Counted from the first letter of the stretch, positions 14,040 to 63,974 are shown. The stretch: DNA of 64,000 bases from an uncultured Gammaproteobacteria bacterium (GCA_964392925.1 CAYMRP010000003.1:50786-114785), one strand, 5' to 3'. A program made the numbers and translations. The notes: generated by a model from the sequence alone, not told the origin.

Positions 14040-14258
14040 ACTATAATTATGTACTGACTGTGAAGGAATCGGTTGGGATTCTGGAGTCAATTAGGCTATC
14101 TTTTAAGAATGTCTAATACAGAGACGAAACTGAAAAGACTGTAGCGGATGTTGGAAATCAAAGTCCGTCAAGAATAAGTATTAATATCAAGGTGGCACCG
14201 CCAATTTGTTGGCCCTTGTTTGTTCATCAGATTTTGGTGAATGAGCAAGGGCTTTTTG
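14040..14258 (+). promoter_or_regulatory. Candidate T-box riboswitch leader (Trp-specific) with terminator, upstream of trpE
   Basis: AAGGTGGCACCGCC (14189-14202) matches the T-box core GGUGGNACCGC, with the UGGC bulge expected for tRNA-Trp discriminator G. Terminator GCCCTTG…CAAGGGC + TTTTTG (14212-14258) sits directly before trpE ATG 14271. A possible UGG specifier lies at about 14082. Confidence 0.45.
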
Positions 14259-14270
14259 TTTGGAGAAAAT

Positions 14271-16240: not shown

Positions 16241-16241
16241 G

Positions 16242-17255: not shown

Positions 17256-18048
17256 AATGTTGAAGAAAATAGTTGAAGCGAATAGAGAAGATTTGAACTT
17301 ACGAAAAAAAGAGATTTCGCAAAAAGAGTTGGAAGAGAAATTATTTGGAATTACTAAATGTTTAGATTTTAGAAAAGTTTTTGAAACTGAGTTTGGAATT
17401 ATCGCAGAGATAAAACTAGCTTCACCATCAACTGGCGATTTAATAATGCCCGGGCAAATTTTACAAATTGTTGAAGATTACAAAAAAGGCGGGGCTAAGG
17501 CTATATCGGTCGTTACAGAGAAGCATTTTTTTAAAGGCGATATAAAACTTATAAAAGAAGTAAAACAGAAAACGGGGCTTCTTATTTTGCAAAAGGATTT
17601 TGTTGTTGATAGATATCAAATTCTTGAAGCCCGGATTGCGGGAGCAGATGCATTACTATTAATTGCAAAGATTTTAGATCCAGAGCAAATTAAGGAATTT
17701 GTGGAATTATGTTTTGAGTTGGGGATTGAACCGGTGGTAGAGATATATGATGAAGAAGATTTGATTAAAGCTCAGAATACTAAGACCCGGATTATCGCTG
17801 TTAATGCAAGGGACCTGAATACTTTTGAAATTAATATTGACAGAGCTTGTGAACTGATAAATAAGATTCCAGAAGATTTTTTGAGGTTGGGGTTTTCAGG
17901 GGTTAATACGAAAGAGGAGATTTTAAAGTATAAAAAGGCAGGAGCTAGAGGAGTTCTGATAGGGAGTAGTTTGATTAAGGCTTTGGATAGAGTAAAATTT
18001 TTGGAGGAATTAAGTGATTTTGCATCCACTGGAGATAAGAATGATTAA
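17248..18048 (+). CDS. trpC: Indole-3-glycerol phosphate synthase
   Basis: IAEIKLASPSTGDL…AISVVTEKHFFKGD…LILQKDFVVD…IAVNARDL is the typical IGPS TIM-barrel. 8-nt overlap with trpD. Confidence 0.9.
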   Translation: MNEMLKKIVEANREDLNLRKKEISQKELEEKLFGITKCLDFRKVFETEFGIIAEIKLASPSTGDLIMPGQILQIVEDYKKGGAKAISVVTEKHFFKGDIKLIKEVKQKTGLLILQKDFVVDRYQILEARIAGADALLLIAKILDPEQIKEFVELCFELGIEPVVEIYDEEDLIKAQNTKTRIIAVNARDLNTFEINIDRACELINKIPEDFLRLGFSGVNTKEEILKYKKAGARGVLIGSSLIKALDRVKFLEELSDFASTGDKND

Positions 18049-18649
18049 TGTCAAAATTTGCGGTATAAGATCGGATATGGCGGCCAAGACCGCGGTTTAT
18101 TCAGGAGCAAAATTTTTAGGATTTAATTTTGCGTCCGGATCAAAGCGGAGAATAACGCCAGTGTTTGCCAAGCAGATAATTGATCAAATTAAAAATCAAG
18201 TTAATGTGGTTGGGGTATTTCAAAACCAGAAAGCAGAAGAAGTTAATAAAATTGCGGAGATGCTTGATTTAGATTATGTCCAACTTCATGGTGATGAGGA
18301 TGAGGAATATGTCAAAGAGATAGAAAGGCCTGTTATAAAAGTTTTGCAACTTGATCCGGATTTTAATATAACTACGGTTTTAAAAGAAATGAATAAATAT
18401 CAAGCCGAATATTTTTTATTGGATCGCAAAAAGCAAGGAAAAGGTAAAATGCTGGATACGAAAAGCCTAAGTGTTGTTTGTAAGGAGAAAAAAATATTTG
18501 TGGCCGGAGGATTAACTTGTGAGAATGTGGCTAATGTTATTAGCTCTGTAAATCCATTTGGGGTTGATGTGGCATCGGGAATTGAGACGAATCGAATAGA
18601 AGACACAGAGAAAATAAAATTATTTATGGAAAGGGCAAAAGGAGCATAG
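18041..18649 (+). CDS. trpF: Phosphoribosylanthranilate isomerase
   Basis: MINVKICGI N-terminus and …VQLHGDE…FVAGGL… Overlaps trpC by 8 nt. Confidence 0.85.
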   Translation: MINVKICGIRSDMAAKTAVYSGAKFLGFNFASGSKRRITPVFAKQIIDQIKNQVNVVGVFQNQKAEEVNKIAEMLDLDYVQLHGDEDEEYVKEIERPVIKVLQLDPDFNITTVLKEMNKYQAEYFLLDRKKQGKGKMLDTKSLSVVCKEKKIFVAGGLTCENVANVISSVNPFGVDVASGIETNRIEDTEKIKLFMERAKGA

Positions 18650-18685
18650 GAGAGTAGGTATTTTCTCGCTGCACTCGAAAAATAT

Positions 18686-19912
18686 ATGATGAAAAGGGGA
18701 AAGTTTGGACAATATGGTGGGCGGTATGTACCGGAGATGTTGATTCCGGCGCTTGAAGAATTGGAAACGGCTTATGATGAGGCGAAAAAAGATCCGGAAT
18801 TTAAGAATGAATTTCTGGACTTATTAAAGAACTTTTGTGGACGGCCAACACCGCTCACATATGCTGCAAATTTAACTAAGCTGTTAGGGGGAGCAAAAAT
18901 TTATTTAAAGAATGAAGGACTCAATCATACAGGAGCTCATAAAATAACTCATTGTGTTGGTCAGGGACTACTAGCTAAAAGAATGGGTAAGACAAGGATA
19001 ATTGCGGAAACTGGGGCTGGGCAGCATGGTTTGGCATCGGCGACTGTGGCGGCCAAACTGGGAATGAAATGTACTGTTTTTATGGGTGAAGTGGATTATA
19101 ACAGGCAGAGGCCAAATGCTTTTTGGATGGAACAACTAGGAGCTGAAGTAGTACCTGTTAAATTTGGATCAAGAACTTTGAAAGATGCTGTTAATGCAGC
19201 GATTAAAGACTGGATTGAAAATGTTGATGATTCTTATTATCTTTTGGGATCGGTTGTTGGGCCGCATCCTTATCCGACAATGACTCGGGATTTTCAAGCT
19301 ATTGTTTCAAAAGAAGTTAAAGAGCAAATACAAAAATTTGAGGATAGGTTACCAGATGTGGTGATAGCTTGTGTTGGCGGAGGCAGTAACGCAATGGGGA
19401 TTTTTTCAGGATTTCTAAGTGATAAAAATATAAGATTGATTGGAGTTGAAGCAGGTGGAAAAGGGAAAGGAATAGGCAATAACGCTGTCAGATTTGAGGG
19501 AGGAACTGTGGGGATTGTTGAAGGATATAAATCCTATTTTCTTCAGGACTCAGATGGACAGTTAAATAGAACTCATTCAATTTCGGCAGGGCTTGATTAC
19601 GCAGGTATAGGGCCGGAGTTAGCTGATTTGCATGATAAAAAACGGGTTGAGTTTGTTTCTGTGACAGATAAAGAAGTGATAGAAGCTTTTCAAACATTGG
19701 CACATTCGGAAGGGATCATTCCGGCTTTAGAATCAGCACATGCTGTGGCTCAGGCTATAAAAATTGCTCCAACTTTAAAAAAATCACAAGTGATTGTGGT
19801 GAACTTATCAGGTCGAGGAGATAAGGATTTATTTATAGTGGCTAAAGCAATGAAGGATAAGAAATTTAAGAAGTTTTTAGAGGAGTATTTGGGAGGTTAC
19901 GATCAGGATTAG
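18686..19912 (+). CDS. trpB: Tryptophan synthase beta chain
   Basis: PLP Lys motif LNHTGAHKITH, and GGGSNAMG. Confidence 0.95.
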   Translation: MMKRGKFGQYGGRYVPEMLIPALEELETAYDEAKKDPEFKNEFLDLLKNFCGRPTPLTYAANLTKLLGGAKIYLKNEGLNHTGAHKITHCVGQGLLAKRMGKTRIIAETGAGQHGLASATVAAKLGMKCTVFMGEVDYNRQRPNAFWMEQLGAEVVPVKFGSRTLKDAVNAAIKDWIENVDDSYYLLGSVVGPHPYPTMTRDFQAIVSKEVKEQIQKFEDRLPDVVIACVGGGSNAMGIFSGFLSDKNIRLIGVEAGGKGKGIGNNAVRFEGGTVGIVEGYKSYFLQDSDGQLNRTHSISAGLDYAGIGPELADLHDKKRVEFVSVTDKEVIEAFQTLAHSEGIIPALESAHAVAQAIKIAPTLKKSQVIVVNLSGRGDKDLFIVAKAMKDKKFKKFLEEYLGGYDQD

Positions 19913-19945
19913 GCGGTATTTTCTCGGCTTGCTCGAAAAGTATTT

Positions 19946-20680
19946 ATGAAATTGATGACACATGTAGTGGTGGGATACCCATCACTTAAAGAGACAGAGG
20001 ATTTAATTTTGCTAATGGATGAGGTTGGAGTAGATTATATAGAACTACAAATTCCATTCTCAGATCCGTTGGCCGATGGGCCGACAATTATGAAGGCCTG
20101 TGAAGAGTCTCTAAGAAATGGGACCAAAGTTGCTGATGCGTTTTTACTGGCATCAAAATTGAAGACTAAAACTAAAACCCCACTTTTATTTATGGCTTAT
20201 TTTAATACCGTCTTTCACTACGGCATTCAGAAGTTTTGTAAAGATGCAAAACGCGCCGGAATTGCCGGACTAATTGTGCCGGATTTTCCCCTTGAAGAGG
20301 AAGAAACAGAGCACTTTAATCAAATTCTAAAGCAGAATGGGCTATTAAATATAAAAGTATTGTCTCCTGCTTCAACAGAGGAGCGGATAAAAATGAATGC
20401 GGAAGTGGGGACCGGATTTGTATATTGCACAGCAAGGCAAGGAATCACCGGAGCCGAGAAAGGATTTGATCCGAAAGTGATTAAGTATCTAAAAACTGTT
20501 AAAAAACATTTTAAAATTCCGGTAGCATTAGGGTTTGGGATTTCAACTAAAGGACATATATCACAGATGGAAGGATTGGCTGATGTGGCAGTTGTTGGGA
20601 GCGCGATATTGGATATCATTAATTCGAATAGAAAAGAATATTTAAATAAAGTAAGAGACTTTTTGAAGGATCTGAGATAA
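19946..20680 (+). CDS. trpA: Tryptophan synthase alpha chain
   Basis: YIELQIPFSDPLADGPTI catalytic region and GFGIS. Confidence 0.9.
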   Translation: MKLMTHVVVGYPSLKETEDLILLMDEVGVDYIELQIPFSDPLADGPTIMKACEESLRNGTKVADAFLLASKLKTKTKTPLLFMAYFNTVFHYGIQKFCKDAKRAGIAGLIVPDFPLEEEETEHFNQILKQNGLLNIKVLSPASTEERIKMNAEVGTGFVYCTARQGITGAEKGFDPKVIKYLKTVKKHFKIPVALGFGISTKGHISQMEGLADVAVVGSAILDIINSNRKEYLNKVRDFLKDLR

Positions 20681-20695
20681 AATGAGGAAGATTAT

Positions 20696-21691
20696 ATGAA
20701 GAAAACAGTTTTGTCAGGAATAAGAGCTACAGGAAGATTGCATTTAGGTAACTATTTAGGGGCAGTTAAGGGAATGCTGGAGTTACAAGATAATCCAGAA
20801 TATGAAACATTCTATATGGTGGCGGATGTGCACACTATAACTACGCCATATAATATTGAGGAACTAAAGGTTAATAGACGGGAAGTTATTTTAGATTATC
20901 TGGCGGCAGGTCTTGATCCGGAAAGATCAGTTATATTCCAACAGGCAGAAGTTCCTGAGCATCTAGAGTTAGCATTTTATTTTTCATCGGCGGTAACTAT
21001 TGCGCGTATGCAACATTTACCGACATTTAAAGAAAAAGTTAAACAATATCCAGATAACGCGACGATGGCGCTTTTGAACTATCCAATATTAATGGCAGCT
21101 GATATTTTGATTTATAAAGCAGGACTGGTGCCTGTTGGAATCGATCAGGAGCCGCATTTGGAAGTTGCAAGGGTAATTGCAAATAATATGAATAATCTTT
21201 ATGGAACTGATTTTCCAGAACCGGTTAGGTTTGCCACAAAAGGAGAGTATGTGCCTTCTTTGACTGGTGAAGGGAAGATGAGTAAAACTGTAGAGGGAAG
21301 CTTTATAAATATTACGGATGATCTTGAGGTGATTAGAACAAAAGTTGCTAAATTACCAACAGATGCAGGGTCTGGGGTTTTAGGTGAGAATGGACCGGAA
21401 AAAGGAAGTCCTTTGCAGACAGTTTTGGCGTTTGTGGAATTGTTTCAGGGCAAGGAGAAGGCAGAGTTTTATAAAAAAATGTATATTAATGAAGGGATTA
21501 GATACGGTGACTTAAAAAGGGAGTTATCTGAGGCTATTTTTGACGAATTAAGACCACTACAGGAAAAAAGAAAAGAGCTTGAGAATAATCCTGAGTTTGT
21601 TGATAAGGTGATAAAAGAAGGGGCTGAAAAAGCGAGGGTTGTGGCGAGTAAGACATTAAGAGAAGTTAAGGAAAGAATGGGACTCACATAG
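20696..21691 (+). CDS. trpS: Tryptophanyl-tRNA synthetase
   Basis: Class I HIGH-region TGRLHLGNYLG, KMSKT, AADIL. 331 aa, typical bacterial TrpRS length. Confidence 0.9.
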   Translation: MKKTVLSGIRATGRLHLGNYLGAVKGMLELQDNPEYETFYMVADVHTITTPYNIEELKVNRREVILDYLAAGLDPERSVIFQQAEVPEHLELAFYFSSAVTIARMQHLPTFKEKVKQYPDNATMALLNYPILMAADILIYKAGLVPVGIDQEPHLEVARVIANNMNNLYGTDFPEPVRFATKGEYVPSLTGEGKMSKTVEGSFINITDDLEVIRTKVAKLPTDAGSGVLGENGPEKGSPLQTVLAFVELFQGKEKAEFYKKMYINEGIRYGDLKRELSEAIFDELRPLQEKRKELENNPEFVDKVIKEGAEKARVVASKTLREVKERMGLT

Positions 21692-46121: not shown

Positions 46122-46188
46122 GGATTGAGGCTAATTGTAACAAATCTGAACCTTTCTCACAAACACGTATACTGATAGAATATTCAAA

Positions 46189-46737
46189 ATGCAAAAAGTA
46201 AATCCTTGGAAAAAGTTATCTTCAAGAGCTGTTTATAAGAATGATTGGTTTTCTGTTCGCGAAGATGAAGTAGAAAAGCCGGGGAATAGGACTGGGGTTT
46301 ATGGAGTGGTTGAGACAGATCCGTCTGTTTTTATTGTGGCTATTAACGATCAAGAAGAAGTTTATTTAGTCGGGCTTTTTAGATATCCGGTTTCCCAGTA
46401 TAGTTTAGAAATTCCGGCTGGGAGTTCTGATGGAGAAGATCTACTTGAAGCCGCAAAGAGAGAATTGCTTGAGGAAGCCGGACTTAAAGCACTAAGGTGG
46501 GAGAAAATTGGGAGTTTCATACCGCTTAACGGAATAGCCAATGAAATAAGTAATATTTTTATGGCTAGGGATTTGGAGGAAACAGGCAGCGAACTCGATC
46601 CTAATGAAGGAATTATGGAAGTCAGAAAAGTGCCTTTTGAAAGAGTGTTTGATTTGGTAAGATCTGGGGAGATATCAGATGGGCAAACAATTTCAGCATT
46701 AACGTTGGCTAAGATCCATTTAGGAAAGTGGTCATGA
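46189..46737 (+). CDS. NUDIX hydrolase (ADP-ribose pyrophosphatase-like)
   Basis: Nudix box GSSDGEDLLEAAKRELLEEAGL. Confidence 0.75.
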   Translation: MQKVNPWKKLSSRAVYKNDWFSVREDEVEKPGNRTGVYGVVETDPSVFIVAINDQEEVYLVGLFRYPVSQYSLEIPAGSSDGEDLLEAAKRELLEEAGLKALRWEKIGSFIPLNGIANEISNIFMARDLEETGSELDPNEGIMEVRKVPFERVFDLVRSGEISDGQTISALTLAKIHLGKWS

Positions 46738-46776: not shown

Positions 46777-47973
46777 ATGATTCTATATGAATTTGAAGGA
46801 AAAAAGTTATTAATAGATGCCGGAATTGCAGTTCCCTCCTCGCAACTTATTAGCTCACTAGATGAGGAAGTTTCTTTACAATATCCGCTTGTTTTGAAGG
46901 CGCAAGTTTTATCAGGAAAAAGGGCGGATGCCGGTGGAATATTATTTGCTGAAAATGAAGAAGAGTATAGAAATGGGATTAAGAGGCTCTTGGACTCAGT
47001 TATAAATAAAGAAAAAGTAGAACAGGTTTTAGTTGAGGAGAAGGCAGAAATTGAGAAAGAGTATTATGTTTCAATTTCTTATAACACAGAAACCCGCGGA
47101 GCTGTTTTAACTTTATCTGAATCTGGGGGAACCGGTATCGAGGACAGAGAAGCAAATACGTATAAAGTATCAAGTGTTAAGTATCAAGCCGGCGAGGAAG
47201 CAGTTAAGTTTGATGAACTGGGCAAATTAGAGGGAGTAGATGGAGAGGTTATTAATGATTTAATTAAAATGTTTTTTGATCAGGATTGTTCGCTTTTGGA
47301 AGTTAATCCATTAGTTAAAACCAGATCAGGGGAGTGGATGGCTTTGGACGCAAAAGTAAAATTAGATGACTTTGCAAAACCGAGACACAAGGATGAGTGG
47401 GATTATTCTCCGAGATCAGCTCCAGGTCATACGCCTACCAGAGGCGAAATTGAAGCTAAAAAAATAGATGAAGGTGATTATAGAGGGACTGCTGGTTCTT
47501 CATATTTTGATATTGAGGGTGGTGATATCGCGGTTTTGTCATCCGGAGGGGGTGTTTCTTTGACAGCTTTGGATTCTCTAATTAATTACGGAGGAAAGCC
47601 AGCTAATTTTACTGAATATTCTGGGAATCCACCAAAAGAGAAGGTAGCAAAGCTAACTAAAGTTGTCCTAGATAAGCCTAATATTCATGGCCTTTGGGTT
47701 ATTGGGACTGTTGTTGCGAACTTTACTGATATTTACGAGACGCTATCGGGATTTATTGAAGGATTAAAAGAAACGGAAAAGTTACTGGGCAGGAAATTTG
47801 ATTTTCCAATTGTTATCCGCAGAGGAGGTCCTAGAGTAGAGGAGGCTTATGAGATGTTGAAGAACGTAAAAGAGTTTGATTTTCATTTGCAGGCTGGGGA
47901 GACTTCTATAGCGCAATCGGCGAAGACTATGGCAGAGCTTGCTAAGGAGTATGAATTAAGAATTAAGGGCTAA
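46777..47973 (+). CDS. ATP-grasp subunit, succinyl-CoA synthetase beta / ATP-citrate lyase small-subunit (AclB/CcsA)-like
   Basis: MILYEFEGKKLLIDAGIAVP N-terminus (SucC-like). 398 aa. Followed by an alpha-like subunit and a citrate-synthase-like gene. Confidence 0.7.
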   Translation: MILYEFEGKKLLIDAGIAVPSSQLISSLDEEVSLQYPLVLKAQVLSGKRADAGGILFAENEEEYRNGIKRLLDSVINKEKVEQVLVEEKAEIEKEYYVSISYNTETRGAVLTLSESGGTGIEDREANTYKVSSVKYQAGEEAVKFDELGKLEGVDGEVINDLIKMFFDQDCSLLEVNPLVKTRSGEWMALDAKVKLDDFAKPRHKDEWDYSPRSAPGHTPTRGEIEAKKIDEGDYRGTAGSSYFDIEGGDIAVLSSGGGVSLTALDSLINYGGKPANFTEYSGNPPKEKVAKLTKVVLDKPNIHGLWVIGTVVANFTDIYETLSGFIEGLKETEKLLGRKFDFPIVIRRGGPRVEEAYEMLKNVKEFDFHLQAGETSIAQSAKTMAELAKEYELRIKG

Positions 47974-47978
47974 GTATT

Positions 47979-48881
47979 ATGGGAAATAGATTATTAAAAA
48001 AGGATGCTAAATTAATAGGACAAGGGTTAACGGGGACTGAGGGGGCGAGGGCTTTGCCTAGGATGACTTCTTACGGCACAAAAATCGTGGCCGGAGTGAC
48101 ACCTGGCAAAGGTGGGCAGGAAGTGGAAGGGGTGCCGATATTTAACTCAGTTAAAGAGGCTGTTGAAGCAGTTGGGCCAGTCGATGGTACGGTTCAATTT
48201 GTCCCTCCGTTATTTGTTAAAGGAGCTGTTAAAGAAGCGATTGAGGCCGGATTAAAATTTATTTTAATCAGTGCGGAGAAAGTCCCAACTTCTGATGAGG
48301 CGTATATGTATGAACTAGCTGAGAATAATGGGGCGAGTATTATTGGTCCAAATTCGGTGGGACTTTTAAGTACTCATAATAGAATTAGATTAGGGTTAAT
48401 CGGGGGTTCTGATCCAGAGAAAGTATTTATGCCGGGGGAAATTGCGATTGTCTCTAAATCCGGATCAATGACGGCAGAGATTGGGCTTCATTTAAAAAAT
48501 AATGGTTTAGGAACATCATGGGCTGTTGGGATAGGCGGGGATATTGTGGAAGGAACTGATTTTGCGGATTTTTTACTTGAACTTGAGGATGATGCAAATA
48601 CGAAAGCCTCGGTCATTTTTGGAGAATTAGGGGGAACATATGAAGAGAAAGTGGGGGATTTAGTTAAAGCAGGCAAAATTACAAAACCTGTTGTGGCTTT
48701 GATCGCTGGAGACTTCACTATGAAATTACCTAATGAGGTTCAGTTTGGTCATGCAGGTGCTATTATTGAAGGAGAGAGAGGACTTCCTGACTATAAGCGG
48801 AAATTCTTACGAGAAGCGGGAGTGAAAGTGGCAAACTCGATTGATGAAATTGCGGAGCTTTTGAAGCAGTCTTTAAAATAA
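47979..48881 (+). CDS. CoA-binding subunit, succinyl-CoA synthetase alpha / AclA N-terminal (CcsB)-like, with phospho-His motif
   Basis: CoA-binding Rossmann (GLTGTEG…) and the conserved catalytic-His loop VQFGHAGAIIEG. Confidence 0.75.
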   Translation: MGNRLLKKDAKLIGQGLTGTEGARALPRMTSYGTKIVAGVTPGKGGQEVEGVPIFNSVKEAVEAVGPVDGTVQFVPPLFVKGAVKEAIEAGLKFILISAEKVPTSDEAYMYELAENNGASIIGPNSVGLLSTHNRIRLGLIGGSDPEKVFMPGEIAIVSKSGSMTAEIGLHLKNNGLGTSWAVGIGGDIVEGTDFADFLLELEDDANTKASVIFGELGGTYEEKVGDLVKAGKITKPVVALIAGDFTMKLPNEVQFGHAGAIIEGERGLPDYKRKFLREAGVKVANSIDEIAELLKQSLK

Positions 48882-48883
48882 AA

Positions 48884-49561
48884 ATGGCTATTACAATTAC
48901 ACATGTTGATGATGATGAAACTAAGCCGGCGCTTTTTGAGGAGCAAGATCTTTTGGAGTTAGCCCAGAAGATTTCATTTGCCGAATTGATTTTTGAGATG
49001 TTGACTGAGAGAAAGCCTTCTGAGGCAGAAGCTAAGCTGCTTAATTTAATTTTGAATTTATCAGCCGATCATGGACCTAATGCCCCGTCAGCAGTGGCGA
49101 CAATTGCAGCTACTAAAGAAGGCAAAACAATGGGTGAATCGGTTGGGGAAGGTATGGCGCAGATTGGTGATCGGCATGGCGGAGCAGGAGGGCCTTTGAT
49201 GGAATTGATGTACAGGATCAAGAACCAAGGGACAAGTATTAAGGGAGAAGTTGAAGATGTCTTAAAAGAGGGAAAAAGGATTCCGGGGATGGGTCATCGA
49301 GTCTATAAAGATATTGATCCGAGGGCGCAGTTGATTATGAAAACGGCAGTTGATAATGGAGTGGGTGAGGAATTTGTGAAGCTGGTGAATGAAATAAGAG
49401 ATGAGATTGAGAGACAGTCTGGTAAGAGCTTGCCGGTTAATATAGATGGAGCAATTGCTGCTGTTTTTTGCGGATTTGGCTTAAAGCCGGAATTTGGGAT
49501 TGCAGTATTCATAGTGGCGAGAGCTCCTGGGCTATGTGCTCATTTTATTAATAATTCCTAA
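48884..49561 (+). CDS. Citrate-synthase-like domain protein (citryl-CoA lyase / ACL C-terminal-like), apparently C-terminally short
   Basis: LNLSADHGPNAPSA…GPLMEL…GHRVYKDIDPRA…ARAPGLCAH are hallmark citrate synthase blocks. The protein ends 6 residues after the AH block. Confidence 0.65.
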   Translation: MAITITHVDDDETKPALFEEQDLLELAQKISFAELIFEMLTERKPSEAEAKLLNLILNLSADHGPNAPSAVATIAATKEGKTMGESVGEGMAQIGDRHGGAGGPLMELMYRIKNQGTSIKGEVEDVLKEGKRIPGMGHRVYKDIDPRAQLIMKTAVDNGVGEEFVKLVNEIRDEIERQSGKSLPVNIDGAIAAVFCGFGLKPEFGIAVFIVARAPGLCAHFINNS

Positions 49562-49662
49562 AAAAGTGTTTGGATTTTATTGCGGGGCGAGCTTGAAAAT
49601 TTTCACGGATTCTGCCTATAATAATCATCTACTTAGGAAGACGGACCTGGGTTACTTTCTGT

Positions 49663-50994: not shown

Positions 50995-52758
50995 ATGTTA
51001 GAAATCCTTTACAATCCAGTCATGACATTTAAAAAACTGGCGGAGTATTTTGAGAAATTAGAAGAGACTTCTTCGCGATTATCCTTAATTGATATATTAT
51101 CGGAACTTTTTTCTGAGGTTTCTCCTGATGAGGTGCCGATGGTTTCTTATTTAATACAAGGAAGAGTAGCCCCTTTTTATGAGCCTGTTGAAATTGGAAT
51201 GGCGGAAAAGAATGTGGCGGCATCGATTGCTAGAGCATATGGTGTTGATAGAGAAGAGGTTTTAACACTATATGGAAAAGTTGGAGATTTAGGAAAGGCT
51301 GCTTTGGAACTGAGCCAGAAGAAAAATCACAAAAGCCAGAGCCTAACAATTAAAGAAGTCTTTGAGACGCTAAAGGAAATTGCAGGATTTTCAGGAGACG
51401 GGACTGTTGAAAAGAAAATCTCAACTTTGGTGGGATTGCTGGAAAAAGCTAGCGGAATAGAAGCCAAGCACTTAGTTAGGATTCCAATCGGAACATCACG
51501 CCTGGGGATTGGTGATCCGACTGTTTTAGATGCCTTTGCTAAGGCTAAATTGGGCGATCGATCAAAGAGGAAGCTCTTAGAGGGGGCATACAACAAAGTG
51601 TCTGATTTAGGACTTATTGGAAAGACTTTGTGGGAGGGCGGGCTTCCAGCAGTTCAAAAGCTGGATGTAGAGTTTGGAAGACCTATTAGAAGTCAGCTTT
51701 GCGAAAGATTGCCTGACCCGAAATCAATTTTGGAAAAATATGGAGGAGATGCTCATGTGCAATATAAATACGACGGTTTTAGGATTCAGATACATAAAAA
51801 GGGAAAACAAGTAAGATTATTTTCGCGTAATTTAGAGGAAACAACGCCAATGTTTCCAGATATTATCGAAGGTGTTTTAAAACAAATTAAAGCTGATTCG
51901 ATAATATTGGATTCAGAAGGATTGGCGTATAACCCGGAGTCAGAGGAATTTTTGCCGTTTCAGGAAACTACGAAAAGAAGAAGAAGACACGGAATTGAGG
52001 ATGCGGCAAAAACTTTACCACTCAAAGCATTTGTTTTTGACATCATGTATATCAACGGAAAATCTTTAGTTGACACCCCGTTATCTGAGAGATTGCAAAT
52101 TATGGCAAAAGCGATCGATGGAGATGAGGTTTTAATTGAACAGCCAGGAATATTTATGAATGATGCTGCTAAGATGGATGCAATGCTGCAGGATGCACTG
52201 ACTAAAGGGTTAGAGGGGTTAATTGTTAAAAGGCCTGATTCTTTGTATGAGGCTGGGGCGCGTAATTTTAACTGGATTAAATTAAAGCGTCATTCCTCGG
52301 GCGAACTTAAAGACACGATTGATTGTGTAATTTTGGGATATATTTTTGGTAGAGGGAAACGGGCTGATTTTGGGGCAGGGGCATTATTAGTTGGGGTTTA
52401 TGATAAGGAAAAAGATGAATTTGTGACTGTTTCTAAAATAGGGACTGGGTTAACAGATGAAGAGTGGAGGGAGATTCATAGACGGGCAGATAAGATTAAG
52501 GTTGATCATAAACCGGCAAGAGTGAATGCAGTCATGGAACCTTCAGTTTGGATTAAGCCGGAAATTGTGATTGAAGTTTTAGCAGATGAGATTACAAAAT
52601 CTCCAACTCATACGGCAGGTAAAACGGATACGGAGCCTGGATATGCTTTACGATTTCCAAGACTGGTTAAGTTTAGAGATGCGGATAAAAGAGCTGAGGA
52701 TAGTACGACTGTTTCAGAGCTGGTAAAAATGTATAGCGCTCAGTATTCGAAAAAGTAG
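50995..52758 (+). CDS. ATP-dependent DNA ligase (Lig1/archaeal-type: DNA-binding + adenylation + OB domains)
   Basis: Motif I KYDGFR (Lys adenylation), motif III, motif IV EGLIVK, motif V, OB domain. N-terminal DBD (…FEKLEETSSRLSLIDILSELF). An alternative ATG at 51022 sits 7 nt after a TACAAT box, suggesting a leaderless start. Confidence 0.85.
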   Translation: MLEILYNPVMTFKKLAEYFEKLEETSSRLSLIDILSELFSEVSPDEVPMVSYLIQGRVAPFYEPVEIGMAEKNVAASIARAYGVDREEVLTLYGKVGDLGKAALELSQKKNHKSQSLTIKEVFETLKEIAGFSGDGTVEKKISTLVGLLEKASGIEAKHLVRIPIGTSRLGIGDPTVLDAFAKAKLGDRSKRKLLEGAYNKVSDLGLIGKTLWEGGLPAVQKLDVEFGRPIRSQLCERLPDPKSILEKYGGDAHVQYKYDGFRIQIHKKGKQVRLFSRNLEETTPMFPDIIEGVLKQIKADSIILDSEGLAYNPESEEFLPFQETTKRRRRHGIEDAAKTLPLKAFVFDIMYINGKSLVDTPLSERLQIMAKAIDGDEVLIEQPGIFMNDAAKMDAMLQDALTKGLEGLIVKRPDSLYEAGARNFNWIKLKRHSSGELKDTIDCVILGYIFGRGKRADFGAGALLVGVYDKEKDEFVTVSKIGTGLTDEEWREIHRRADKIKVDHKPARVNAVMEPSVWIKPEIVIEVLADEITKSPTHTAGKTDTEPGYALRFPRLVKFRDADKRAEDSTTVSELVKMYSAQYSKK

Positions 52759-58173: not shown

Positions 58174-58965
58174 ATGGAGTTACTAATATATATTTTAGTT
58201 TTTACATTTTTAGGCAGTATTGCTTCATTGGTAGGAGGGATTTTTTTGCTGTCAAAAAAAGAACTGGTTGGTAAGATTTCGCATTATTTGTTTTCATTTG
58301 CGGCTGGAGTTTTATTGGGTACGGCTTTTTTTGATCTGCTTCCCGAGGCATTTGCTGAGATTGAACATTTAGCTGAAGAAGGAATTATTGTAGAGACAAA
58401 TATATTTCTTTGGACATTTTTAGGAATTATTGGCTTCTTCTTTTTAGTTAGATTTTTGCACTGGTTTCATCATCATGACGATCATTTTAAAGATGAGCCA
58501 AAACAGACAGTGTCGCTTATTGTAGTCGGAGATACTGTACATAATTTTATAGATGGAATGATAATTGCGGCTTCATTTTTTGTAAGTATTCCGCTGGGTA
58601 TTCTTACAGCTATTGCGGTGGCAATTCATGAGATACCACAAGAGATAGGAGATTTTGCAATTTTAATTAAGAGAGGTCTGCCTAGGAAAAAAATCATTCA
58701 GATTAATTTGATAAGTGCGGCGGCAGCAATGGTAGGAGCGATGCTGGTGTTTATTTTAGGAGAATCAGTCAAGGCTATGCTGCCGATGTTTTTGGCACTG
58801 ACTGCAGGATTCTTTATCTACATAGCGACGGCCGATTTAATCCCTGAGATTCATAAAGAAGATAACCAAAAGGTGGCTTTCATGGAAGCTTTACTACTCG
58901 TAATTGGAGCGCTTACTGTTTATGGTTTGGCAATAATTTTAGAAAGCGCGAATCTTCATGGATAG
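58174..58965 (+). CDS. ZIP-family divalent metal transporter (ZupT-like)
   Basis: HNFIDGMIIAASF and HEIPQEIGDFAIL metal-binding TM motifs. Confidence 0.75.
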   Translation: MELLIYILVFTFLGSIASLVGGIFLLSKKELVGKISHYLFSFAAGVLLGTAFFDLLPEAFAEIEHLAEEGIIVETNIFLWTFLGIIGFFFLVRFLHWFHHHDDHFKDEPKQTVSLIVVGDTVHNFIDGMIIAASFFVSIPLGILTAIAVAIHEIPQEIGDFAILIKRGLPRKKIIQINLISAAAAMVGAMLVFILGESVKAMLPMFLALTAGFFIYIATADLIPEIHKEDNQKVAFMEALLLVIGALTVYGLAIILESANLHG

Positions 58966-59512
58966 TAAAAAAAATTTAAATTCTGATAATCAGATAATAT
59001 CGGCGGTTGATAGTGCAGGTAACTTTATTCGTTATATTTCGAAGGAAGATGGACATACAGGTGAAGGCATTCATCATTTAGCAATTACAGTTTTTATTTT
59101 TAATTCAAAAGGGGAGCTACTTTTACAAAAAAGGAAACATAAGGTATTTGATAATTTTTGGGATAACACAGCGTCAACTCATCAGCTGCATTTGGAAAAT
59201 GGCCATGACGAGAGTGACAAGGAGGCAACTTTACGAACACTGAAAAGAGAGTATGGGATAGAGAATGTTGAACTTGAGAATTTGGGAGGATTTAATTATT
59301 TCGAGAAAATTGGTGGGCTTTGTGAGAATGAGTTTTGCAAATTGTTGATTGGAATTTATGATGGTGAAGTAAATTTAAATCCTGAGGTTGGATATTCGTA
59401 TAAGTGGATTTCAAAAAAAGATTTTATGAGAGAGCTTGAGGAGATACCTGGGGAATATACACCATGGTGTAAAGCAGCAGTAAAGATTCTTCATGATAAA
59501 GGTATTTTGTAA
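58958..59512 (+). CDS. Isopentenyl-diphosphate isomerase type 1-like NUDIX protein, Cys67-to-Ser variant (paralog A)
   Basis: Aligns to E. coli Idi: His ligands kept (IHHLAIT, STH). ENE (Glu114/116), Tyr and Trp161 equivalents present. WTNSVCGHP is WDNTASTHQ here. Confidence 0.55.
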   Translation: MDSKKNLNSDNQIISAVDSAGNFIRYISKEDGHTGEGIHHLAITVFIFNSKGELLLQKRKHKVFDNFWDNTASTHQLHLENGHDESDKEATLRTLKREYGIENVELENLGGFNYFEKIGGLCENEFCKLLIGIYDGEVNLNPEVGYSYKWISKKDFMRELEEIPGEYTPWCKAAVKILHDKGIL

Positions 59513-60051
59513 TGGATCTTGAAGAGGAGTTGGTTGATATTGTTGATGAGCGAAATATTGTTATCGGGCAATCTTCCAGAAGAGAAGCGCATGCTAGAGG
59601 GCATATTCACCGGGCGCTATCCGTATTAGTTTTAAATTCTAAAGGCGAGATATTACTTCAAAAGAGATCTGCTAATAAATCGGTCCATCCCATGTCTTGG
59701 GATTTATCAACCTCAGAGCATGTGTTGAGTGGAGAGAGTTATGAAGATGCGGGATTTAGATCTGTAAAAGAAGAACTCGGTGTTGAGGCAGTTGTAACAA
59801 AAGCTACGGAAATAACTTTGCAGAAAAGGAAATATCAGGTTAAGGGGGAGACGGTTTTTGAGAATGAAATTGTTCTGATGTTAAGGGCGATTCATGACGG
59901 TCCTTTTGAAATAGATCCAGAAGAGGTTAATGAAGTTAAATTTTTTAAAGTGGAAGAAATTGAGCAGATGGTAAAAGGCGGTGAAGACTTCACTACTTGG
60001 TTTTTGGACGAATGGCTGAATGTAAAAAAAGTAGTTAGTTCAATCACATAG
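59512..60051 (+). CDS. IDI-1-like NUDIX protein, also Cys-to-Ser (paralog B)
   Basis: HRALSVLVLNSKGEILLQKR…WDLSTSEHV…ENEIV. Same substitution pattern as paralog A. 1-nt overlap (TAATG). Confidence 0.5.
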   Translation: MDLEEELVDIVDERNIVIGQSSRREAHARGHIHRALSVLVLNSKGEILLQKRSANKSVHPMSWDLSTSEHVLSGESYEDAGFRSVKEELGVEAVVTKATEITLQKRKYQVKGETVFENEIVLMLRAIHDGPFEIDPEEVNEVKFFKVEEIEQMVKGGEDFTTWFLDEWLNVKKVVSSIT

Positions 60052-60300
60052 CTCAATCCGGCTGACGGGAAACGTTAACTCCGGATAAGTGGCTGATTTG
60101 GCGATGCTAGTTGGTATCGATCGAGTAACCTCCAGGTTCCGTTCCGGTAGTTGATCGGGGCGAAGTAAAAATGAGGCTAATTTTGGTACTTCGAATCCTC
60201 TAATTGTAACTTCTCCTGAATCTGAGACGGTAAAGCGGCGGTGTCTCTTTACTATTCTTGATTGAGAAGGAGAGGTGTCGATTTCAGGACTTATTGCCAT
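60040..60300 (-). CDS. Possible small ORF (86 aa) translationally coupled to the MVD-like gene; coding status uncertain
   Basis: Its ATG overlaps the MVD-like TGA (ATGA). No domain. The region is locally GC-elevated and may instead be a structured 3' UTR. Confidence 0.2.
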   Translation of the reverse strand: MAISPEIDTSPSQSRIVKRHRRFTVSDSGEVTIRGFEVPKLASFLLRPDQLPERNLEVTRSIPTSIAKSATYPELTFPVSRIELCD

Positions 60301-61277
60301 CAGAAAAGATGTGTCTTGGACAATCTTACTCCGTCTCCTGGATAATTTACAATAATGTTTTTGACTTCCGAGAGCTCCTTTAAGTTTGCTTTTAAACTTT
60401 CAACATGGTTCTTTTCAACAATTAAATGGACATCCTGGCCGGTGTTGACTGTGAAATAAACAGGAATTCCCTCTTCGCGCCATTTTTTGCAGAGCTTCAT
60501 TAATAAAAGTGAATTGGGCATAAGGTAGATTAAGGCTGGTTTTTGGGTAATATAAATCGAGTGGAGTTCGAGAGCTTCTGATTCAATTAGTTCGCCGAAT
60601 TCTTTAAAGTTTTTTTCTGTTATTAATTTCTTAAGTAGTTCGTTTTTAGCTTTCATTCCTTCTACTCTAATGTTCATGAAAGGGGAGGTGTTGGCTCCTT
60701 CATGGGCATCTGAAGTTGAGATTTCTTTTCTGCCTTCTGAAACAACTGCTACGACATCTGCGATCTCCCAATGGTCTTTTTCAAATATAGTTTTAGCATA
60801 GGAGGTTTCAGAAGTGTCGCCATCTAACCATTCTACAATTCCTGCAGGAATTGAGCGGCAGGCTGATCCGGAGCCTTGTCTGGCAAGTATTGATAATTCT
60901 GATTCAGATAATTCAAGACCAGCAGCATTTGATCCGGCTACTGTTAGGGCTGCAAATCCTGAAGCGGAAGAAGAGAGGCCGGTTCCGGTGGGGAAAGAAT
61001 TTTTTGAAACTACTTTAGCGAAAGTATTTATACCGGCAATTTTTCTAATTCTGTCTAAATGTTTTATAACTTTTGCGGCTTCTTTTTCTCTTTTTTCGTC
61101 ATTTATAGTTATATCATCGGCGGTTAAGTTTTCGTCAAATTCTACAGTGGTGGTAGTTAAAAGATTTGATAAGGACATGGAGATGCTGCCGTTCATCGGC
61201 AGTCTTAAGGTTTCGTCTTTGCGGCCCCAATATTTGGTGAAGGCAATATTGGATGGAGCTATAGCTGTTGATTTCAT
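60300..61277 (-). CDS. Diphosphomevalonate decarboxylase-family protein (MVD/PMD/M3K-like) with non-canonical catalytic-Asp region
   Basis: N-terminal APSNIAFTKYWGRKD, and GSGSACRS. Where MVDs have (Y)FT(M)DAGPN, this protein has VYFTVNTGQDV (Asp->Asn in my alignment). Confidence 0.65.
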   Translation of the reverse strand: MKSTAIAPSNIAFTKYWGRKDETLRLPMNGSISMSLSNLLTTTTVEFDENLTADDITINDEKREKEAAKVIKHLDRIRKIAGINTFAKVVSKNSFPTGTGLSSSASGFAALTVAGSNAAGLELSESELSILARQGSGSACRSIPAGIVEWLDGDTSETSYAKTIFEKDHWEIADVVAVVSEGRKEISTSDAHEGANTSPFMNIRVEGMKAKNELLKKLITEKNFKEFGELIESEALELHSIYITQKPALIYLMPNSLLLMKLCKKWREEGIPVYFTVNTGQDVHLIVEKNHVESLKANLKELSEVKNIIVNYPGDGVRLSKTHLF

Positions 61278-61771
61278 ATTAGGAATCCGTATTCTTTAAG
61301 AGTTATTTTAGATGATTCTGAGAGATCTTCAAAGACTTCTTTTAATTCTTCCCGAGTAAAGAATCTTAGTTCGTCAGTTTCTTCGGGATTAAATTTAAAA
61401 GGGCCATTTGACTGAAGAGTGTAAAGCTTAGTCATTGTTTTGTGAGCAGGATCATCTATTATCATTCTTTTGAGAAAGGCAGGTTTGGCGCTGAGTCTTA
61501 ACTCTTCAAGGATTTCTCTTTCTGCGGCTTCGTCATAGGTTTCTTCTTCACCGACATGTCCGCCTACTGCATTCGACCATTTTCCTGGGTTACTATCTTT
61601 TTTGACACTTCTTTTTTGAAGCATCACTTGTCCTTTCTCGTTAAATACTAAAACTGAAATAGTCCTATGAAGCAGTTTCTTGGTATGGGCTTCCTTTCTG
61701 GGCATGTAATTCATGACGTAATCGTTTTCGTCAACAACAATTACTAATTCTTCGGGATCTGTGTAATTCAT
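61274..61771 (-). CDS. NUDIX hydrolase, IDI-like (paralog C; Cys position is Gly)
   Basis: HRTISVLVFNEKGQVMLQKR…WSNAVGGHVGEEETYDEAAEREILEE is a NUDIX box embedded in an IDI-like N-terminal layout. ATGA overlap with the MVD-like gene. Confidence 0.5.
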   Translation of the reverse strand: MNYTDPEELVIVVDENDYVMNYMPRKEAHTKKLLHRTISVLVFNEKGQVMLQKRSVKKDSNPGKWSNAVGGHVGEEETYDEAAEREILEELRLSAKPAFLKRMIIDDPAHKTMTKLYTLQSNGPFKFNPEETDELRFFTREELKEVFEDLSESSKITLKEYGFLI

Positions 61772-62754
61772 TGCTCAAGTCTAACTCCATCTGTATTTAC
61801 TTCAACTTTTAAAACTTGGCCGCCGGCGTTTTGAATTGCTTGCTGAACTGCCTTGATTCTATTTTCGGGAGCAAGAGCAATCATACAATCGCCGCCGCCG
61901 GCACCCGATAATTTGGCACCAAAAGCTCCGGCATTTCGAACTGCATTGATAATTGAGGAGAGTTTATTGGTGGAAACTCCCAATTGTTCAAGCAGTGTTT
62001 GATTCGAATTCATTAATTCGCCGAGTTTTTTCAGATCATTATGAGCAAAAGCCGCTTTTGCTTCTTCAACAATTTCTTCCATGTTGTTATAAATTTCGTT
62101 TAACTCTGCTTGTTTATTCTCGAAGCGGGCTTTGACTTCTTTGACTATTGTGGCGGTATCGGCTTTGACTCCGGTGTAGCCAACAATGAGTGGTAGATGG
62201 CTAATAGCTAATGGTTGAATGGTTTTGCCGCCGGCTACAAAGTATAAAGTTTCGCCGTATATTGCGGCTGCTAAATCAAAGCCAGATCCTAATCCCTGGA
62301 CATCCAATACCGTTTGATAAGCAAGGTCAAAAATTTCTTTCTGAGTTAGTTCTGGTTTAAATATTTCTGCCAATGCTTTGACCGTACAAACTGCGGATGC
62401 AGAAGAGGAGCCAAAGCCAAAAGTAGACTTAAATTGGGCAACAGTTTCTAATTGAATTCCAGCATGTGGGGGGATAGCAGCGGCGTATTTTTCAAAGAAA
62501 TTTTTAGTTGCGAATTCGACAAATTTTGCACCTTTTGGAATTTCGTCTTCTCCGAGATGAGACATCAGTTTATTGTAATTTTTAATATCAACGTCGGGGG
62601 CATTTAATTTAAAAACTGGTTCATCGTTATAGGAAGCGGTTAGAGAGAGCCTTTGATTTACGGAAGTTACAATACATGGCTTACCGTAAACAACGGCATG
62701 TTCACCAAAAAGCATTAATTTTCCGGGAGCTGAAACTGTAATCTTTTTGTCCAT
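61768..62754 (-). CDS. GHMP kinase, mevalonate-kinase-like paralog (candidate phosphomevalonate kinase or variant)
   Basis: SAPGKLMLFGEHAVVYGKP (MVK motif 1), GFGSSSA (motif 2), GSGFDLAAA (catalytic Asp), KLSGAGGGDC (motif 3). Not ERG8-type. Confidence 0.6.
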   Translation of the reverse strand: MDKKITVSAPGKLMLFGEHAVVYGKPCIVTSVNQRLSLTASYNDEPVFKLNAPDVDIKNYNKLMSHLGEDEIPKGAKFVEFATKNFFEKYAAAIPPHAGIQLETVAQFKSTFGFGSSSASAVCTVKALAEIFKPELTQKEIFDLAYQTVLDVQGLGSGFDLAAAIYGETLYFVAGGKTIQPLAISHLPLIVGYTGVKADTATIVKEVKARFENKQAELNEIYNNMEEIVEEAKAAFAHNDLKKLGELMNSNQTLLEQLGVSTNKLSSIINAVRNAGAFGAKLSGAGGGDCMIALAPENRIKAVQQAIQNAGGQVLKVEVNTDGVRLEQ

Positions 62755-62755
62755 A

Positions 62756-63700
62756 TTAAATAATTCCTGTTTCTGAAATCTGAACTGAATAGTACTTTAA
62801 ATTATTTTCCTTGGCAAATTCTATAAGTATATTTATGTTTTTATGAAAGGCTAAAATCATTCCTGATCCTTTTTTAATTCCTCCAGCTCCAGTTATTTTA
62901 GCGGCTCCTTTTAAGTTCTCGATTTTTGTAATGATATCACGGGTTGTTTCACTAACGACTCCCAAACTTTCTAAATTAGATTCCGATTGTTTAATAATTT
63001 TAAATAATTGAGACTCAGTATTGTTTAATAATGCGTCTTTTAATTGATGTGCTAGAGCTTCCTGACTGTTGATAATTTTATTAAATAAATGTTTGTTTTG
63101 TTTAGCAAAATTTGAAACATGTTCCACCATGTCAGATGTTTTTTCAAGAGGCTTGCCTGAATCGATCAATAGAAATTTTAAAGCAGATTTAGTAGAGATT
63201 CTAGAATAGTCCTCACCTTTTCTAAACCAAATAAGTCCACCATAGACAATTATAGTGTTATCTCCGCCAGAGGGATTTCCTTGAAATATTTTTTCACCCT
63301 CATAAACTAATTGATTTAGTGTTTCGAGGTCACAATTAACATTCAAAAATTTTAGCAGAGCTGAGGTGAAGACTGCGCAAAAAGCGGCGGAGGATCCAAG
63401 GCCTGAACCGATTGGAAGATCATTGTTAAATTTGATTGTGTAGTTTGGAATTGAGGAAAGAGCGAATTTTTTGGTGATTAATTTTTCTAGATTGATTTGG
63501 AATTTTTCGATTGCATCATCATGCTGAATTATGCCAAGGATTTGTTTTTTTTCTGATGAATAGATTCTACCTGTAAATCTTAAATTTATTGCAGCGAGGA
63601 TAGCAGGTTTGCCATAAACGACGCTGTGTTCGCCGATCAGGTGAATTTTTCCGGGGGCTGAAACTTTAATAATATTAGAGGGGTTTGAATTTGATTCCAT
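62756..63700 (-). CDS. Mevalonate kinase-like GHMP kinase
   Basis: KVSAPGKIHLIGEHSVVYGKP, GSGLGSSAA, SGGDNTI (catalytic Asp), KITGAGG. Start taken at MESNSNPSNII. The track ORF extends to 63745 and would overlap the next gene by 71 nt. Confidence 0.7.
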   Translation of the reverse strand: MESNSNPSNIIKVSAPGKIHLIGEHSVVYGKPAILAAINLRFTGRIYSSEKKQILGIIQHDDAIEKFQINLEKLITKKFALSSIPNYTIKFNNDLPIGSGLGSSAAFCAVFTSALLKFLNVNCDLETLNQLVYEGEKIFQGNPSGGDNTIIVYGGLIWFRKGEDYSRISTKSALKFLLIDSGKPLEKTSDMVEHVSNFAKQNKHLFNKIINSQEALAHQLKDALLNNTESQLFKIIKQSESNLESLGVVSETTRDIITKIENLKGAAKITGAGGIKKGSGMILAFHKNINILIEFAKENNLKYYSVQISETGII

Positions 63701-63974
63701 ATTCAATGATGTCGGCGGCCTGAGGTTTGCGGGATCTTCTGACAACTGAAATAACTTTAAGTCCGATTTTTAAATCTGATTCTTCGCAGTCAATTATTTG
63801 AGAGGGTACTTTAGTGCCGTTTTCAAGTTCAATTATACCGGCAAAATATGGTGCTTGATACTCAAAACCAGAGGGAGCGGTGAAGATTTTTGTCCATACT
63901 AAAAGCTTACCTTTTTGAGAAAGGTTTTGATTTAATTTCTTAGTATCCCGCCAATGTTTTACTGGACTGCTCAT
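63675..63974 (-). CDS. DUF35 OB-fold protein (thiolase/HMG-CoA-synthase scaffold family), lacking the N-terminal Zn-ribbon
   Basis: GKLLVWTKIFTAPSGFEYQAPYFAGIIELENGTKVPSQIIDCEESDLKIGLKVISVV aligns closely to archaeal DUF35 OB folds (…VYSFTVVHRAPPGFEPPYIVALVELEEGPRVMTNIVDCDPEEVKIGMEVEVVF). Confidence 0.65.
   Translation of the reverse strand: MSSPVKHWRDTKKLNQNLSQKGKLLVWTKIFTAPSGFEYQAPYFAGIIELENGTKVPSQIIDCEESDLKIGLKVISVVRRSRKPQAADIIEYGIKFKPL

Follow-up and report, generated by a model that had tools for sequence, protein, structure and literature searches.

Introduction

The closest described counterpart of the genes reported here is the two-step citrate cleavage system of Hydrogenobacter thermophilus, an autotroph using the reductive tricarboxylic acid (rTCA) cycle, in which the large and small subunits of citryl-CoA synthetase (CCS; CcsA and CcsB, 6hxq) and citryl-CoA lyase (CCL; 6hxp) are three separate polypeptides. 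ATP-citrate lyase (ACL), as represented by AclB/AclA of Chlorobium limicola (6hxj), ACLY-A/B of Methanothrix soehngenii/Methanosaeta concilii (6hxi) and fused eukaryotic ACLY, has the same chemistry and domain complement, but its alpha-like part and CCL module form one polypeptide. Sequences from bacteria of the Candidate Phyla Radiation (CPR) and from DPANN archaea that carry the labels succinyl-CoA synthetase (SCS) or citrate synthase (CS) have been found to be monophyletic with CCS or CCL (preprint 10.1101/2022.10.25.513756, 2022), and CCS/CCL has been mentioned in a few DPANN metagenome-assembled genomes (MAGs) (PMC8091004). Here we analyze three adjacent genes, encoding proteins 1, 2 and 3, in a 64,000-nucleotide stretch of DNA recorded as an uncultured Gammaproteobacteria bacterium (GCA_964392925.1, CAYMRP010000003.1:50786-114785; hereafter the window), and argue that they probably constitute a citrate cleavage module of the H. 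thermophilus type. Both this kind of system and its presence in CPR bacteria are already known, and the locus adds no new mechanism.

The H. thermophilus system shares with the window proteins its division into three polypeptides and its domain content. Proteins 1 and 3 find their best sequence and profile matches in it, as protein 3 does its best structural match, and CcsB resembles protein 2 in two loop insertions and in the motif SKSG. The identities, however, are about 30–40%, and H. thermophilus is an rTCA autotroph, whereas the window host appears to be a non-autotrophic CPR bacterium with a small genome. The proteins also differ in detail: where CcsA has ANNT, the sequence of protein 1 is ANFT, the motif of ACL; CcsB is 353 aa long with a C-terminal extension of about 40 residues that is missing from protein 2; and CCL is 268 aa long, compared to a protein 3 that has no C-terminal tail. 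AclA of C. limicola has Phe at the position where protein 3, CCL and CS have His98. The SucC and SucD subunits of SCS have a homologous ATP-grasp, CoA-binding and phospho-His architecture, and archaeal SCS-alpha shows about 45% identity with protein 2, but SCS has neither a citrate-binding domain like that of protein 1 nor the CCS/ACL insertions of protein 2. Citrate synthase and 2-methylcitrate synthase agree with protein 3 in their catalytic core fold and in the His/His/Asp/Arg residues. Protein 3, however, lacks about 140 N-terminal residues and the C-terminal arm of CS, and has NIDG where CS has NVDF.

Results

The three genes form a tightly packed operon on the + strand (Table 1), with intergenic gaps of 5 nt between the genes for proteins 1 and 2 and 2 nt between those for proteins 2 and 3. 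In contrast to ACL, the alpha-like and lyase parts are split by a stop codon and a change of frame: the stop codon at 48879-48881 ends protein 2, and an ATG at 48884 in a different frame opens protein 3. A preliminary description of the window had reported three adjacent genes at 46777-49561, the first encoding 398 aa, together with the motifs GHAGA, GHRVYK and ADHG and the domain complement of citrate cleavage, and all of this was borne out. The + strand open reading frames (ORFs) lie exactly there, GHAGA occupies residues 257–261 of protein 2, and ADHG and GHRVYK occupy residues 61–64 and 137–142 of protein 3. Pfam searches identified an ATP-grasp domain and a citrate-binding domain in protein 1 (ATP-grasp_2, residues 3–180, 2.9e-26; Citrate_bind PF16114, residues 247–371, 6.3e-21; both above the gathering score), CoA_binding and Succ_CoA_lig/Ligase_CoA domains in protein 2, the phospho-His protein, and a short citrate-synthase-fold protein in protein 3, in which Citrate_synt was matched over its C-terminal part only (profile positions 142–346 of 357). 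The E-values over the three proteins ranged from 1e-11 to 1e-37, far past chance. The Pfam scan gave no Ligase_CoA match in protein 1, where the citrate-binding domain of ACL stands in place of the Ligase_CoA domain of SCS.

Protein 1 matched the CCS and ACL large subunits ahead of SCS. Its top matches among PDB sequences were CcsA (6hxq_B, 1.4e-48) and AclB of C. limicola (6hxj_A, 4.7e-45), with SCS-beta at 2e-32 or weaker, and a family profile, built like those for the other two proteins from CPR homologues and searched against PDB sequences, scored 235 bits against CcsA, 193 against AclB and 168 against the best SCS-beta. The citrate-site motifs GGGG, EYSG, ANFT and RRGGP are present. Aligned to human ACLY, GGGG at residues 257–260 of protein 1 corresponds to G281–283, S282-G283 to S308-G309, N315-F316-T317 to N346-F347-T348, and R349 to R379; ACLY G309, N346, T348 and R379 are presumably the citrate binders seen in the ACLY crystal structure. 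The aligned positions are invariant in 19 CPR homologues, with the exception of S282, which is kept in at least 90%, while eight SCS-beta sequences differ at each site, having NGAGL, D(I/V)GGG, GGI(T/V)R and R(L/V)xGT. Catalytic-centre residues of ACLY include G281–283 and S308 (PMC11365397). Neighbor-joining (NJ) trees with 300 bootstraps separated the CPR and DPANN sequences, CcsA and AclB from the eight SCS-beta sequences at 100% bootstrap. Taken together, the alignments and trees support a position of protein 1 on the CcsA/AclB side and not with SucC. Its order relative to CcsA and AclB varied in the full alignment (59/11/30% for the three alternatives), and the citrate-binding domain alone scored 81.8 bits against AclB and 74.0 bits against CcsA and grouped with AclB at 88% NJ bootstrap.

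Protein 2 has a phospho-His, His258 in QFGHAGA, that is invariant among homologues, and E216 is nearly so. The CoA-binding Rossmann domain, the catalytic Glu in GE(L/I)GG and the His in GHAGA are common to SCS-alpha and are therefore non-discriminating. As a single sequence, protein 2 matched archaeal SCS-alpha at 9e-66 and CcsB at 2.6e-59. More specific are two loop insertions that are absent from SCS-alpha structures. A 4-residue insertion (IGGSDP) is common to protein 2 and CcsB and occurs in no SCS-alpha structure, and the phospho-His loop is three residues longer in protein 2, CcsB, human ACLY and M. concilii ACLY-B than in SCS-alpha structures. Protein 2 also carries SKSG and QFGHAGA instead of SRSG and RMGHAGA, and its loop LPxEVQFGHAGA resembles M. 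concilii LPASVQFGHAGA. The NJ tree separated the CPR and DPANN sequences and CcsB from four SCS-alpha references at 100% bootstrap. Because of the insertions, the NJ split and the synteny described below, we assign protein 2 to CcsB rather than to SCS-alpha; scores alone would leave the choice ambiguous.

Protein 3 was matched best by citryl-CoA lyase in models, sequence, family profile and fold. Its best NCBIfam models were the citryl-CoA lyase PRK06224 subfamilies (1.2e-46), well ahead of every citrate synthase model, and its best PDB match was H. thermophilus CCL (6hxp_A, 6.8e-35), whereas no citrate synthase did better than 4e-19; the family profile scored 178 bits against CCL, 102 against the best CS and 95 against AclA. 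The AlphaFold2 model has a mean predicted local distance difference test (pLDDT) score of 91.9, and Foldseek placed 6hxp first (template modeling score 0.86, E = 1e-16), followed by 38 CCL-module chains of ACL, with CS from rank 40. Residues H63 (in DHG), H98 (HGGA), H138-R139 (GHR), R147 (DPR), D188 (NIDG) and R213 do not vary in either of two independent sets of homologues (n = 17 and n = 22), and the motifs align with those of CCL, AclA and CS. In CS, the residues equivalent to R147, R213, H63 and H138 bind oxaloacetate/citrate. NxDG and a one-residue insertion after DHG are common to protein 3, CCL and AclA and do not occur in citrate synthases, and the CPR and DPANN sequences, CCL and AclA were separated from CS at 100% NJ bootstrap. 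The length of 225 aa is typical, as nearly all of the 120 best homologues have 222–242 aa. Protein 3 ends eight residues past a conserved GLCAH motif, which lies in a helix, and this short end is kept across the CPR homologues (L006–L048). Homologues share 52 invariant columns that include all of the catalytic residues, indicating that protein 3 is under purifying selection and is not decaying. The sequence comparisons indicate that it belongs to a divergent clade of the citryl-CoA lyase family, outside the curated subfamilies. Short CCL-like proteins as a whole comprise 3,587 cluster representatives at E<=1e-3, and these are mostly uncharacterized.

A pattern-limited scan of one genome per GTDB species yielded 48 loci from CPR bacteria and three from DPANN archaea, as well as ordinary Bacteroidota SucC genes that were used as outgroups. 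The CPR loci were mostly of the Microgenomates type and came from Daviesbacteria, Woesebacteria, Woykebacteria and Microgenomates, with a few from Giovannonibacteria, Lloydbacteria and Paceibacterota. Complete CPR genomes with the module include CP066686.1 and OY970314.1. All 43 loci that were sufficiently long and had all three genes (40 CPR, 3 DPANN) showed the order protein 1-protein 2-protein 3, often with overlapping stop and start codons between the module genes of related loci. No family was a consistent neighbor of the module in these 43 loci. Occasional neighbors were tryptophanyl-tRNA synthetase (TrpRS), the commonest with 9 of the 43 loci, a membrane protein, a NUDIX hydrolase and a sigma factor/primase, none of which exceeded that number, and a conserved metabolic neighbor (transporter, aconitase, malate dehydrogenase or mevalonate genes) was likewise absent from them. 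The module is thus a self-contained, conserved operon under purifying selection, rare among prokaryotes overall and ordinary in the CPR lineage. The preliminary description had called such modules rare in bacteria outside rTCA autotrophs, which holds overall but not within CPR, where the module is routine (more than 1,700 protein 1 homologues in the database, the 120 best of them all at least 60% identical, and 48 CPR species genomes).

Several further observations concern the records in which the module or its relatives occur. The DPANN loci (L049–L051) come from two MAGs titled Woesearchaeota and one titled Methanosarcinales, and have the same three genes in the same order, with identities of 37–39% (protein 1), 43–45% (protein 2) and 32–37% (protein 3); DPANN protein 1 was sister to the CPR clade at 98% NJ bootstrap. 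Many MAG records (L007–L013, L016, L017 and others; CAY.../CAZ... of GTDB) carry a Microgenomates-type module at 55–75% identity under the titles "uncultured Gammaproteobacteria bacterium" or "uncultured Candidatus Saccharibacteria bacterium", which look like placeholders or wrong taxonomy. One MAG titled Rhodopseudomonas palustris (L053:5974-8024) has an adjacent pair of SCS-like beta and alpha genes with the deviant motifs VNPKRAGD and FFSIHGT. In the NJ tree this pair branched between the SCS-beta references on one side and the ACL/CCS group on the other, and it may be a different acyl-CoA ligase, for example malate thiokinase.

The window itself is AT-rich (about 38% GC), with nearly all genes on one strand. 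Judging from homologues, its host is a CPR bacterium (Patescibacteria, Microgenomates/Daviesbacteria-like). The stretch from 1 to about 60 kb, with nearly all of its genes on the + strand, has a strongly positive GC skew, which falls at 60–64 kb, where the genes turn to the - strand. The module is flanked on its upstream side by carAB, a Fic protein gene, a membrane protein gene, tRNA-Met and the gene of a NUDIX hydrolase, and on its downstream side by a sortase gene, an ORF without a Pfam match, the ATP-dependent DNA ligase gene and TatD. These neighbors are unrelated to central carbon metabolism. The NUDIX gene immediately upstream may be co-transcribed with the module, and occurs at this position only in the closest relatives (L006–L011, L021). 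The promoter/terminator scan of this region returned only weak consensus matches for promoters (Table 1) and no convincing terminator. Elsewhere in the window, NUDIX hydrolase genes cluster at 58958-60051 (two in tandem, + strand) and inside the mevalonate cluster. The tryptophan operon is directly followed, within the interval given for it in Table 1, by a class I Trp/Tyr-type tRNA synthetase, and a homologue of this synthetase is found two to four genes downstream of the CCS/CCL module in 9–11 other CPR loci.

Table 1. Positions of the module genes and of other features in the window, counted from its first nucleotide.
Feature	Position	Strand	Product length	Remarks
Tryptophan biosynthesis operon	14241-21691	+		Anthranilate synthase, phosphoribosyltransferase, indole-3-glycerol phosphate synthase (IGPS), TrpB, TrpA
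Promoter-like site	46154-46181			Upstream of NUDIX gene; weak consensus match
NUDIX hydrolase gene	46189-46737	+	182 aa	Ends 39 nt upstream of module
Protein 1 gene, ccsA-like	46777-47973	+	398 aa	Citryl-CoA synthetase large (beta-type) subunit, predicted
Protein 2 gene, ccsB-like	47979-48881	+	300 aa	Citryl-CoA synthetase small (alpha-type) subunit, predicted
Protein 3 gene, ccl-like	48884-49561	+	225 aa	Citryl-CoA lyase, predicted
Promoter-like site	49593-49622			Before downstream sortase gene; 11/12 match
ATP-dependent DNA ligase	50995-52758	+		N, M and C domains; archaeal/eukaryotic type; three genes downstream of module
Diphosphomevalonate decarboxylase	60300-61277	-		Lower mevalonate cluster (60300-63745)
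NUDIX protein, possibly IDI type 1	61274-61771	-		Lower mevalonate cluster
Two GHMP kinases	61768-62754 and 62756-63745	-		Lower mevalonate cluster

Discussion

The profiles, NJ splits, citrate-site residues, CcsB-type insertions and separate lyase ORF support placement of this system in the CcsAB + Ccl family in the broad sense, and not with SucCD or ACL. This agrees with the preliminary description, which had proposed a module split as in the two-step system. The outcome that it had named as refuting did not appear: proteins 1 and 2 fall outside SucC/SucD, and protein 3 retains both the catalytic and the oxaloacetate/citrate-binding residues. The system is not an ACL, as its alpha-like part is not joined to the CCL module, and we ruled out a fused ACL since protein 2 and the lyase are separate ORFs here and in all 43 related loci. 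The data establish the gene structure, family placement, residue conservation, fold and synteny, whereas substrate, activity and direction are inferred; we consider it likely that the operon serves two-step ATP-dependent citrate cleavage as in H. thermophilus, acting on scavenged citrate. Proteins 1 and 2 would form citryl-CoA synthetase, in which ATP bound in the ATP-grasp domain of protein 1 would phosphorylate His258 of protein 2. The phosphate would then move to citrate held at the GGGG/EYSG/ANFT/RRGGP site, giving citryl phosphate, and attack by CoA would yield (3S)-citryl-CoA. The free-standing protein 3, with His98, His138, Asp188, Arg147 and Arg213, would split citryl-CoA into acetyl-CoA and oxaloacetate. 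The predicted role is to turn scavenged citrate into acetyl-CoA, which might feed the mevalonate pathway, for instance, and into oxaloacetate, which might serve as a source of aspartate.

A number of points weigh against this interpretation. None of the three proteins reaches its curated NCBIfam cut-offs, and they hence lie outside every curated subfamily; for protein 3 the best model, NF004869, gave 159.2 bits compared to a cut-off of 212, and other CCL models were likewise below cut-off. The family profile of protein 2 scored 300 and 289 bits against SCS-alpha and 287.5 against CcsB, and the trees were made by the simple NJ method from few references, with one each of CcsA, CcsB, CCL, AclB and AclA. 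The C-terminus of the CPR lyase is about 40–46 residues shorter than that of H. thermophilus CCL (residues ~223–268), and a basic KPxRR tail that is kept in the DPANN homologues (L049–L051) is gone from it. In citrate synthases, the C-terminal arm gives an Arg to the active site of the partner subunit. No citrate transporter adjoins the module, none of the upper mevalonate genes (thiolase, HMG-CoA synthase, reductase) is present in the window, and the 43 other loci have no mevalonate gene within 6 kb of the module. The ACL reaction is near equilibrium, so that sequence cannot give its direction. Finally, literature searches brought up neither an assay of a member from CPR or DPANN nor any biochemical or physiological study from the CPR clade.

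The direction of the reaction is the point on which the nearest alternative turns. The same enzymes might run in reverse in vivo, condensing acetyl-CoA and oxaloacetate to citryl-CoA and releasing citrate, CoA and ATP, so that the module would be an ATP-conserving stand-in for citrate synthase in a fermenter reliant on substrate-level phosphorylation. The chemistry is reversible, and a small free-energy change for citryl-CoA synthesis is cited in the 2022 preprint (10.1101/2022.10.25.513756); protein 3 has the full catalytic set of CS, including the His98 that is Phe in C. limicola AclA, and the window has no canonical citrate synthase. However, a consumer of citrate such as aconitase or isocitrate dehydrogenase was found neither in the window nor beside the module in the 43 loci, and the characterized homologues, from the rTCA cycle of Aquificae, run toward cleavage. 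Sequence cannot tell the two directions apart, and we regard reversal as unlikely. A further possibility is that a CCS/CCL-like pair acts on a related acid, such as 2-methylcitrate, citramalate, malate or itaconate, to give another acyl-CoA/keto-acid pair. The missed family cut-offs could be read in this way, as could the loss of the C-terminal tail present in characterized CCL, DPANN homologues and citrate synthases, a loss that may change the active site; 2-methylcitrate synthases, too, have the citrate synthase fold, and the short CCL-like family is mostly uncharacterized. Nonetheless, the residues aligned with ACLY G309, N346, T348 and R379 are invariant in the CPR family and differ in SCS, and the lyase retains R147, R213, H63 and H138, making a different substrate quite improbable.

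The remaining explanation, which the preliminary description had itself offered, is an ordinary SucCD next to a degenerate citrate synthase fragment. This fits the names given by the Joint Genome Institute (JGI), which calls the exact window proteins 1 and 2 succinyl-CoA synthetase beta and alpha subunits and leaves the lyase unnamed, while a relative 96% identical to protein 3 is named citrate synthase. It also fits the SucC and SucD models that top the NCBIfam lists for proteins 1 and 2, and the slightly higher score of protein 2 against archaeal SCS-alpha than against CcsB. Yet the NCBIfam scores reach only about half of the cut-off for SucC (183.6 vs 370 bits) and about three-quarters for SucD (271–274 bits vs cut-offs of 336–353; 274 vs 353). 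Protein 1 has Citrate_bind and departs from the eight SCS-beta sequences at every diagnostic site, the NJ splits are at 100%, and more than 100 homologues of protein 3 keep its length of about 225 aa, with the invariant columns intact. We rejected this explanation, which is hardly credible, on the domains, cut-offs, NJ splits, lyase conservation and diagnostic sites. Several close homologues are in fact named citryl-CoA synthetase large subunit or citryl-CoA lyase by JGI, and a Daviesbacteria homologue is named citryl-CoA lyase by NCBI.

As for the physiological role of citrate cleavage in the CPR host, a function in CO2 fixation is unlikely because the host appears to be a CPR fermenter with a small genome and no rTCA gene lies nearby. 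Neither 2-oxoglutarate:ferredoxin oxidoreductase, fumarate reductase nor other rTCA enzymes turned up in the ORFs that were scanned across the 64-kb window, and in the 43 loci none lay at 6 kb or less from the module. That the module supplies the mevalonate pathway with acetyl-CoA is plausible, though the case for it is circumstantial. The preliminary description had linked the module to a mevalonate pathway in the same genome, and the window does contain a lower-pathway cluster about 11 kb from the citrate cleavage module (Table 1), but the tie is one of co-occurrence, as the two are unlinked in the 43 loci. The mevalonate pathway has been reported in most Microgenomates and few Parcubacteria (PMC6107057), a distribution that parallels the mostly Microgenomates spread of the module. 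The preprint by Jaffe et al. on CPR metabolism makes no mention of citrate, the TCA cycle or mevalonate.

The sharing of this module between DPANN and CPR suggests either an old shared lineage or an inter-domain transfer between two groups of small-celled symbionts. The "archaeal/eukaryote-like arrangement" of the preliminary description is accordingly a loose term: the arrangement is common to a few DPANN archaea, but it is of the unfused, bacterial CCS/CCL type. We also put forward, tentatively and with considerable doubt, that the module of CPR and DPANN represents a separate lineage of the ACL/CCS-CCL family, minimal and unfused, with an ACL-type citrate site and a C-terminally truncated lyase, which could act in symbionts without a TCA cycle as the main gateway from host citrate to acetyl-CoA for the Microgenomates mevalonate pathway, or as a reversed, ATP-yielding citrate synthase. 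If so, its position near the CcsA/AclB split would inform on the ancestor of ATP-citrate lyase before fusion. The unfused clade of CPR and DPANN sequences contributes a deep-branching sample to the history of fusion from CCS/CCL to ACL.

CPR bacteria have been described as lacking a TCA cycle and as having a very limited central metabolism, and here a conserved, apparently functional citrate operon occurs in dozens of Microgenomates species. Because of this limited central metabolism, the module bears on where CPR bacteria obtain acetyl-CoA and oxaloacetate, and on what they take up from their hosts or the environment. The locus is also a clear case of annotation error, since the SCS and CS names can cause metabolic reconstructions to report TCA-cycle steps wrongly. 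The main value of the finding therefore lies in the correction of this annotation, and in a testable lead on the supply of acetyl-CoA and oxaloacetate in CPR bacteria.

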